DNA of 5,816 bases from the IMG/VR virus record IMGVR_UViG_2671180695_000012. One strand, 5' to 3'. A program made the translations under genes and the position numbers. The stretch comes from a virus (Duplodnaviria > Heunggongvirae > Uroviricota > Caudoviricetes). Under the pieces are notes generated by a model that ran no database searches, was not told the DNA's origin, and was given only the letters and a program-made list of their open reading frames with translations. Of the stretch, positions 3,529 through 3,820 are shown in pieces (position 1 is the stretch's first letter; the number at the start of each line of letters is the position of its first letter).

Positions 3529-3584
3529 AGCCTCACCTCCGCAAATAACGGATGGCGTAGTTTTACACTGAGAAATGAAAGGGA

Positions 3585-3613
3585 TTTGAAAAGAAAAGCC
3601 CGCAAAAGCGGGC
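3585..3613 (-). terminator. intrinsic terminator between the tRNA array and S
   Basis: The minus-strand RNA reads GCCCGC-UUUU-GCGGGC followed by UUUUCUUUUC: a 6 bp GC stem with a 4 nt loop and a U-tract. It lies about 60 nt upstream of the S ribosome-binding site. Confidence 0.5.
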
Positions 3614-3688
3614 GAAACAATATATACAGTAAGGAAAGCACTCTATCCAACAAACCACCCACAGTTAATCGGAATAAAAGCAGAGTGC

Positions 3689-3761
3689 TTATGAATGATC
3701 GCCTGCCCGAAGGTTAGTATTTCTGCACAGCAATTTTGCAAAAAAAAGCGATCATTCATAA
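3689..3761. repeat. perfect 14 bp inverted repeat (TTATGAATGATCGC ... GCGATCATTCATAA) with a 45 bp spacer
   Basis: Read directly from the sequence: arms at 3689-3702 and 3748-3761. The spacer contains an A8 run. Confidence 0.6.
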
Positions 3762-3768
3762 CTTAAAC

Positions 3769-3814
3769 GTCTTTCAGTCACTCCGGGATTTCCCATCATC
3801 GCAGACTGAAAGAC
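3769..3814. repeat. perfect 11 bp inverted repeat (GTCTTTCAGTC ... GACTGAAAGAC) with a 24 nt spacer, immediately 3' of tRNA-Gly on the minus strand
   Basis: Read directly from the sequence: arms at 3769-3779 and 3804-3814. It begins 6 nt after the CCA end of the Gly tRNA. Confidence 0.6.
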
Positions 3815-3820
3815 TCTAAC

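Follow-up and report, generated by a model that had tools for sequence, protein, structure and literature searches.

The window, i.e., the whole stretch of DNA analysed here (5,816 nt; IMG/VR record IMGVR_UViG_2671180695_000012), covers the part of a lambdoid prophage devoted to late control and lysis, read in the minus-strand sense, and the features of the window described below are located on this strand. The gene order comprises a DUF968-type ORF, RusA, a Q-like antiterminator ORF (273 aa, 4274-5095, annotated as 'antitermination protein' in E. coli 042), a terminator, four tRNAs, an interval of 292 nt and the lysis genes, and is the same in annotated relatives. The lysis genes start with an S21-type holin S (71 aa, 3528-3313), followed by a YdfR-family ORF, a SAR-type endolysin and Rz. 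The tRNA array (3821-4130), identified by ARAGORN and the E. coli 042 annotation, consists of a gene with a CAT anticodon, which is tRNA-Met according to ARAGORN and tRNA-Ile in the E. coli 042 annotation, together with an atypical tRNA-like gene (3977-4053), tRNA-Thr(UGU) and tRNA-Gly(UCC). The interval between the array and the holin gene (3529-3820), the subject of this analysis, presumably occupies the position of stxAB in Stx phages.

[quoted passage not shown] The region between the Q-like gene and this terminator presumably encodes the short late-promoter transcript, an analogue of the lambda 6S RNA or StxS. It displays a sub-threshold Rfam match to Trp_leader in the window (4167-4273, 25.5 bits), and the equivalent region of HK639 (locus L001, 3338-3410, minus strand) matches isrJ with 34.6 bits, against a threshold of 37. 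On the other side of the interval, the holin leader (3529-3587), which includes the Shine-Dalgarno sequence (within 3534-3543), is outside the conserved RNA element described below, and S starts at a constant 109 nt after the last hairpin of this element (hairpin 3) within the clade of the window. Through a perfect inverted repeat of 10 nt (3478-3487/3534-3543), the Shine-Dalgarno region of S (UGCGGAGGUG) can pair with codons inside S, while in the minimum free energy fold of 3465-3560 it pairs with an upstream segment instead (z-score -2.9). S carries a dual-start MKSM motif, and the structure of its leader may set the choice between the holin and antiholin starts. The following ORF (104 aa, 2994-3308), assigned to the YdfR family in related phages, lies between holin and endolysin, an unusual position in a lysis cassette.

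An earlier note, made from the letters of this DNA, had described the interval as a spacer devoid of ORFs that carries two perfect inverted repeats and a terminator, and all of these were recovered. The 11-nt repeat (two arms, 3769-3779 and 3804-3814, separated by 24 nt) begins 6 nt past the 3' end of tRNA-Gly (3821), and the arms of the 14-nt repeat (3689-3702 and 3748-3761) enclose 45 nt with an A8 tract at 3740-3747. The terminator, GCCCGCTTTTGCGGGC (3613-3598) followed by TTTTCTTTTC, is located about 55 nt before the Shine-Dalgarno sequence of S and has the 6-bp all-G·C stem, 4-nt loop and U tract of a Rho-independent terminator. The longest perfect repeat of the interval, 14 nt, compares with a maximum of 10 nt in 300 shuffles, and folding of the minus strand, which the note had proposed as a check, gave -83 kcal/mol with a z-score of -6.3. 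An additional 9-nt perfect repeat (arms at 3636-3644 and 3682-3690) was absent from the earlier list; the note missed the corresponding hairpin 3, a conserved promoter upstream of the tRNA array and the strand on which the element is read. Regarding coding capacity, only ORFs of 30-45 aa are present, so that the absence of an ORF is essentially right. The sole ATG-initiated ORF within the hairpin region (38 aa) is missing from all six diverged homologues checked, and the length of the T run varies among homologues in steps that are not multiples of three. A small protein was rejected because the ORF is not conserved.

The RNAalifold reconstruction, based on 51 distinct homologues, displays three hairpin domains on the minus strand. 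Over the 59 pairs counted, 98.9% of the cells are paired, and 11 pairs present changes on both sides among the 51 sequences. The covariation score was 0.196 compared with 0.122 in shuffles (0.196 was attained in none of 500), and it was 0.082 or lower when the partners were slid by 1-3 columns. The consensus energy was -60.3 kcal/mol for the minus strand and -29.8 kcal/mol for the plus strand. In addition, G·U pairs outnumbered A·C combinations in the helices by 406 to 13 (327 to 16 in a second alignment), an asymmetry unexpected for a DNA palindrome and pointing to RNA structure on the minus strand. Judging from these alignments, the repeats form the stems of a minus-strand RNA that has the same sense as the late transcript. 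Most of the two-sided changes separate two clades, the E. coli-type and the HK639-type sequences, and therefore the independent compensatory events are modest in number, below what the cell counts would imply. The covariance-model alignment adds more stem variants, chiefly in the outer stem of hairpin 3. The most conserved nucleotides of the element are located outside the stems.

Starting from the tRNAs, the CCA end of tRNA-Gly is separated from hairpin 1 by an A/U-rich linker, GUUAGA (3815-3820, 6 nt), which is predicted to be single-stranded and is likely an endonucleolytic processing site; the linker between tRNA and element is nearly always 5-7 nt long in homologues. Hairpin 1 (3769-3814), formed by the 11-bp repeat, consists of an outer stem, an asymmetric internal loop, a short inner stem and a variable loop. 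Two of its pairs present changes on both sides, and an A-U pair is replaced by G·U in 14 sequences. In the internal loop (5' GC-GAU-GA-UGGG at 3802-3792 and 3' CCCG-GA-GU at 3787-3780), the loop nucleotides are invariant in the 51 sequences. Kink-turns were sought as a helix, a 3-nt bulge, tandem sheared G·A/A·G pairs (NNN-GA on the bulged strand, GA adjoining the first helix on the other) and a second helix, and the loop fits this signature in its sequence pattern, so it can be called kink-turn-like. Among divergent loci, GA/GA is kept with a changed bulge in L173, and the variants of L149 and L163 depart from the kink-turn pattern.

Hairpin 2 (3689-3761), formed by the 14-bp repeat, has a long closing stem carrying two sub-hairpins, with changes on both sides in five pairs of the closing stem and one pair of a sub-hairpin, and it contains the conserved motif UUUUUGCAAAAUUGCUGUG (3744-3726). 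An internal promoter in the loop of hairpin 2 (TTGCAA-16-TACTAA) was discarded, as the key -10 T is missing and the promoter scan was negative there. Hairpin 3 (3636-3690), formed by the 9-bp repeat, has a covarying outer stem with three pairs changed on both sides and further stem types in divergent homologues. Its 3' arm, GGGUGGUUUGUUGGAU (3660-3645), is GU-rich and near-invariant, and the strand facing it is free to vary because G·U pairing accommodates the changes. An A/U-rich unstructured linker (3614-3635), conserved in composition and not in sequence, connects hairpin 3 to the intrinsic terminator closing the unit formed by the tRNAs and their trailer (3588-3613).

Upstream of the array, we read from the sequence a predicted sigma-70 promoter of the tRNA operon (4140-4168), with a -35 box TTGCGG (4168-4163), a 17-nt spacer and a -10 box TATTAT (4145-4140), separated from the 5' end of the first tRNA by a G+C-rich stretch of 9 nt. 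The hexamers overlap the tail of the Q-proximal terminator. We aligned the DNA preceding the first tRNA across lineages that differ in their Q genes, and the consensus TTGC(A/G)N, 17 nt, TAT(T/C)AT was kept in 24 of the 27 distinct upstream variants; the hexamers, their spacing and the distance to the tRNA are maintained while the flanks and the spacer diverge. The promoter scan did not list 4168-4140 since the -35 box has three of six matches here. At the other end, a terminator whose sequence differs between lineages follows hairpin 3 in 45 of the 65 distinct downstream variants, although it is eroded to a stem of 3-4 bp in many E. coli copies. These copies show a stepwise conversion of the 3' terminator arm to T (from GCGGGC to GCGGGT, GCGGTT and GCGTTT), giving a longer U run, and it is this weakened terminator that separates the lysis genes from a putatively constitutive promoter. 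Such erosion is odd if the shielding of the lysis genes is essential; some of these prophages are defective.

The element directly follows tRNA-Gly(UCC) at the end of arrays of varying composition, and in other loci it follows a tRNA-Gly 3' remnant, a Lys-like tRNA or tRNA-Met. Together, the promoter, the tRNAs, the trailer and the terminator suggest an autonomous unit with the makeup of a classical moron, placed after the late-promoter terminator and ahead of the lysis genes. Between the end of tRNA-Gly (3821) and a terminator on the same strand (3613-3598), the hairpins occupy the position of a 3' external transcribed spacer (3'ETS), an arrangement also present in most homologues.

One gene of the array deserves a separate comment. 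The gene at 3977-4053 is a tRNA-Lys(UUU) according to ARAGORN and is not listed by the Rfam tRNA model. In its homologues, the acceptor, D and T arms are conserved, together with a hypervariable anticodon arm, whose calls include Lys UUU, Arg UCU, Phe AAA, Leu UAA, an ochre-reading UUA and undetermined ones; the anticodon-loop region is several nucleotides shorter in many of them (apparently 5-6 nt). This gene may represent a tRNA in decay or, alternatively, a tRNA-like RNA on which diversifying pressure acts, such as escape from anticodon nucleases.

The earlier note had made its proposal depend in part on the repeats being conserved in related prophages, and this is the case. Of 5426 complete E. 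coli genomes, 530 (about 10%) carry the interval, with 95-100% identity and always on the chromosome, and it is unannotated in the 30 E. coli records listed. In the phage collection, four E. coli phages carry it with about 98% identity, and HK639 presents 77% identity over the hairpin region. The phages bearing the element include PhiR47_1, phi467 and HK639, of which PhiR47_1 and HK639 are functional phages. The unit is intact in PhiR47_1, a complete 43-kb phage genome deposited from ECOR13. In HK639, the element is again located between Q and the lysis genes, preceded by just the 3' half of tRNA-Gly and followed by an annotated terminator. Pattern scans of IMG/VR retrieved about 200 loci with 75-100% identity, and a search for the exact hairpin-3 motif, with one genome per species, retrieved only E. 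coli, Shigella flexneri, Citrobacter sedlakii and Phytobacter ursingii. E. coli 042 (L002, 3872-4000) shows that a clearly defective prophage can retain the tRNA-trailer unit: its copy of the element is identical, and the holin after it has been truncated and fused to pseudogenes for tail fibres.

The three hairpins are not always found together. A covariance model built from them retrieved 59 instances in 92 loci, in which most loci contain all three hairpins, others hairpins 2 and 3 only, or a single hairpin 1, 2 or 3, or hairpin 1 joined to another type of second hairpin, with a terminator after it. As hairpins occur singly or in other combinations, the idea of one RNA with one function may be wrong. 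Hairpins 2 and 3 with the terminator can also end a small membrane-peptide ORF or a 132-aa signal-peptide ORF. In L126, L138, L151 and L164, the former is hydrophobic, has about 38 aa (MG[VI]WKIALILTASLIAGV...) and stops exactly where hairpin 2 begins, which makes hairpins 2 and 3 and the terminator its 3' untranslated region. The latter, whose N-terminal segment resembles a signal peptide, interrupts the element in L163 (around 2400-2900, in the sense of the element), where it lies between hairpin 1 with a partial 5' arm of hairpin 2 on one side and complete hairpins 2 and 3 on the other, and this cargo is therefore flanked by duplicated arm sequence.

Copies of STnc100 (RF02076) adjoin the element in the same orientation in three loci, HK639 (L001, 2706-2911, minus strand), L163 (3405-3618 and 3082-3204, both minus strand) and L173 (6455-6567, plus strand), being directly downstream of the element in HK639. 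In that phage, the stretch from Q to the lysis genes contains four consecutive annotated terminators, and each of them ends a non-coding unit. The Q-to-lysis region can therefore be seen as an island of tRNA and sRNA genes in which the element is one recurrent cassette.

Searches against known RNAs did not assign the element to any family. Rfam 15 families, among them STnc100, AgvB, AsxR, Esr41, IsrK, rtT, GcvB and tRNA, were considered present when the covariance-model score reached the gathering threshold of the family. The Rfam scan suggested by the earlier note gave no family match in 3529-3820 when the whole window was searched at E<=1, and for region 3560-3830 at E<=10 the best score was 19.8 bits against a threshold of 35, the matches being on the terminator or far below threshold. 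The STnc100 model has no match in the window. Decayed tRNA genes were discarded as no tRNA model matched the spacer. The four Northern probes for the Pas sRNAs of EPEC (PasA, PasB, PasC and PasD) were unmatched in the window with up to seven mismatches allowed; PasB belongs to a tail-gene region and PasD to STnc100. The candidate next to a pseudo-tRNA-Gly in prophage PP10 of E2348/69 is unrelated, AgvB and AsxR are unrelated in sequence and convergently transcribed, and for IpeX of DLP12 the region of the K-12 record contains no ipeX feature and nmpC is on the other strand. Our search of the literature for a prophage sRNA derived from a tRNA trailer found nothing specific. The element, listed in no RNA-family library, is treated as a candidate small RNA.

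The minus-strand conserved structure, the linkage to the tRNA 3' end, the conserved promoter and terminator and the modular reuse were all observed here. The explanation that we favour, with a probability slightly above one half (roughly 0.55), is that the interval represents the processed 3' trailer of an autonomous phage tRNA operon and yields a stable structured RNA. Of the candidate roles listed in the earlier note, a small RNA or a tRNA 3'-processing or stability element is the one to which the evidence points, since the covarying stems have the same orientation as the tRNAs, directly follow a tRNA 3' end and are bounded on the far side by a terminator; the function within this pair of roles stays at the level of a proposal. 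Transcription would initiate at the predicted sigma-70 promoter, which is conserved and lies about 9 nt before the first tRNA, and during lytic growth Q-modified polymerase arriving from upstream could also supply it. The transcript would span the four tRNAs and then about 185 nt of three independently folding hairpins. Without Q, it would stop at the 3613-3598 terminator, leaving the holin and endolysin genes silent. A cut within the 6-nt A/U linker, as part of tRNA 3'-end processing, would set free a highly structured RNA, about 220-230 nt in length, with its 5' end protected by hairpin 1 and its 3' end by the terminator hairpin. Transcription in the lysogen, this processing and the stability of the product, as well as any trans-acting function, are what we infer from the arrangement. 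The functional surfaces would likely be the invariant nucleotides outside the stems, available for pairing with host RNAs or for protein binding, with three candidates, namely the loop of hairpin 1 that resembles a kink-turn, the conserved motif of hairpin 2 and the GU-rich arm of hairpin 3. As the loops and not the stems are invariant, we weakly prefer a trans-acting role of the released RNA over a purely cis role.

The best-surviving rival, to which we attribute an appreciable but clearly lower likelihood, is a purely cis-acting RNA with no function in trans. The hairpins would frame the RNase E site for the 3' maturation of tRNA-Gly, provide, once the tRNAs have been excised, a structured 5' end that shields the late mRNA (lysis and morphogenesis) from 5'-end-dependent decay, and, together with the terminator, insulate the lysis genes from the constitutive tRNA promoter. 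Consistent with such roles, hairpin 1, or hairpin 2 if hairpin 1 is missing, is always within 1-7 nt of a tRNA 3' end or remnant, and the unit is always upstream of the lysis genes with a terminator after it. The ending of protein-coding morons by hairpins 2 and 3 is also what would be expected from a generic stabiliser-terminator cassette, and a target scan of a phage genome was negative: in a duplex scan of four conserved motifs against the complete PhiR47_1 genome, nothing was better than shuffled motifs. Nevertheless, stable stems would suffice for these roles, yet the loops, the bulges and the GU-rich arm are invariant while the stems compensate, which points to sequence-specific recognition.

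Going further than the processed trailer itself, the hairpins could constitute an undescribed modular family of phage non-coding RNAs, made in the lysogen as the processed trailer of a tRNA operon that is expressed constitutively, and acting in trans on the host. We consider this extended version doubtful at present; it would take the form of a base-pairing sRNA, a sponge or a protein decoy. In this version, the notable features are the kink-turn-like loop in hairpin 1 and the invariant GU-rich arm of hairpin 3, which is reminiscent of the GcvB seed.

It is improbable that the conservation reflects a feature of the DNA itself, either recombination joints or scars at the boundaries of moron exchange or sites for DNA-binding proteins, two possibilities that the earlier note had raised. 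The region is a mosaic hot spot in which the three hairpins are shuffled as cassettes, the 132-aa signal-peptide ORF of L163 is located between partial and complete hairpin copies, and HK639-type loci retain just the 3' half of tRNA-Gly upstream. This modularity, with a cargo gene between duplicated arms, is the part of the proposed moron-integration scar that stands. In contrast, the element is under structural selection and so is not an inert scar, which would decay. A binding palindrome would conserve its arms, but here the arms change by compensation, keeping the pairing and not the sequence, while the loops are invariant. Variation is moreover strand-asymmetric, with G·U tolerated and A·C not, and the folding energy is two-fold in favour of one strand; the protein-binding palindrome is hence unsupported.

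Least probable of all is a cis-regulatory RNA for lysis read-through, i.e., a put-like antiterminator or a riboswitch with the 3613-3598 terminator as its expression platform: a structured RNA with conserved unpaired nucleotides does lie immediately upstream of a terminator and the holin gene and has a distant homologue in HK639, a phage that we take, from reports, to use put RNAs for early antitermination, but inspection of the alignment by eye revealed no antiterminator pairing shared by the E. coli-type and HK639-type terminators, the terminator sequence is lineage-dependent and the linker is not conserved, put RNAs have about 70 nt, two stem-loops and an early-promoter location against about 185 nt, three hairpins and the late region here, no other phage record of the collection shows similarity at blastn sensitivity, and Q already supplies antitermination at this locus.

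The sRNAs encoded between Q and the lysis genes of prophages (AgvB, AsxR, PasD/STnc100, StxS) rewire host regulation in pathogenic E. coli. To this island, the element adds a widespread and evolutionarily constrained structured RNA that has been missed by annotation pipelines and RNA-family libraries. The phage tRNA array does not appear as a passive passenger of the late transcript and looks instead like a transcription unit in its own right, equipped with a conserved promoter and a terminator, which changes how the expression of the tRNAs and of their trailer in lysogens may be thought of. A trailer that turned out to be released as a regulator would give the 3'ETS route to sRNAs its first example in a phage, and one that only stabilises or insulates would still be a natural, reusable 3'-end cassette. 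Should the extended, trans-acting version be true, a prophage regulator linking tRNA supply to host gene control would have gone unrecognised in about 10% of E. coli strains.

Several known systems share part of these features. The put RNAs of HK022 and HK639 have about 70 nt and two stem-loops, are located near or downstream of early promoters and act on RNA polymerase (PMC9378689). They are also cis-transcribed structured phage RNAs upstream of terminators, with conserved bulges in their stem-loops, but the element does not have their architecture or location, being formed by about 185 nt and three separable hairpins in the late region. Stable RNAs are also encoded in the trailers of stable-RNA operons, such as the rtT RNA, which belongs to the tyrT operon. 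Likewise, the rrA/rrB/rrF sRNAs are located between the dual terminators of rrn operons (PMC8144298). As proposed for the phage trailer, rtT and rrA/rrB/rrF are part of the same primary transcript as the stable RNAs; unlike the trailer, they are chromosomal, and they are unrelated to it in sequence and structure, with no match of the Rfam rtT model in the element. The anti-sRNAs AgvB and AsxR of EHEC are described as convergent sRNAs at the moron site downstream of PR' (PMC4104026). They share with the element their nature of non-coding RNA genes and the moron insertion site downstream of a lambdoid late promoter. In contrast, they have 51-60 nt and are convergent to PR', whereas the element is about four times longer and folds on the PR'-sense strand.

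The closest analogues are STnc100/PasD regarding the niche and the 3'ETS of the leuZ operon regarding position and biogenesis. STnc100/PasD (RF02076) are Hfq-associated prophage sRNAs next to the Q antiterminator gene (bioRxiv 10.64898/2026.05.13.724894). They differ from the element in not being attached to tRNA 3' ends, and the element has no match to the STnc100 model; what they have in common is a location after Q and before the lysis genes in lambdoid prophages, the orientation and an intrinsic terminator of their own. As for the leuZ operon, the 3'ETS-leuZ released from the glyW-cysT-leuZ operon of E. coli reportedly acts as an sRNA sponge, in work attributed to Lalaouna et al., 2015, and '3'ETS leuZ' appears in the EPEC data set. 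It has about 50 nt, is chromosomal and has demonstrated sRNA partners, whereas the phage trailer would have about 220 nt and contains three conserved hairpins, is phage-borne and presents no sequence relationship with it. Nevertheless, both RNAs are located between the last tRNA of a polycistronic transcript and the intrinsic terminator of the operon, and the release of 3'ETS-leuZ as a by-product of tRNA 3' processing is the same as the one that we propose for the phage trailer.
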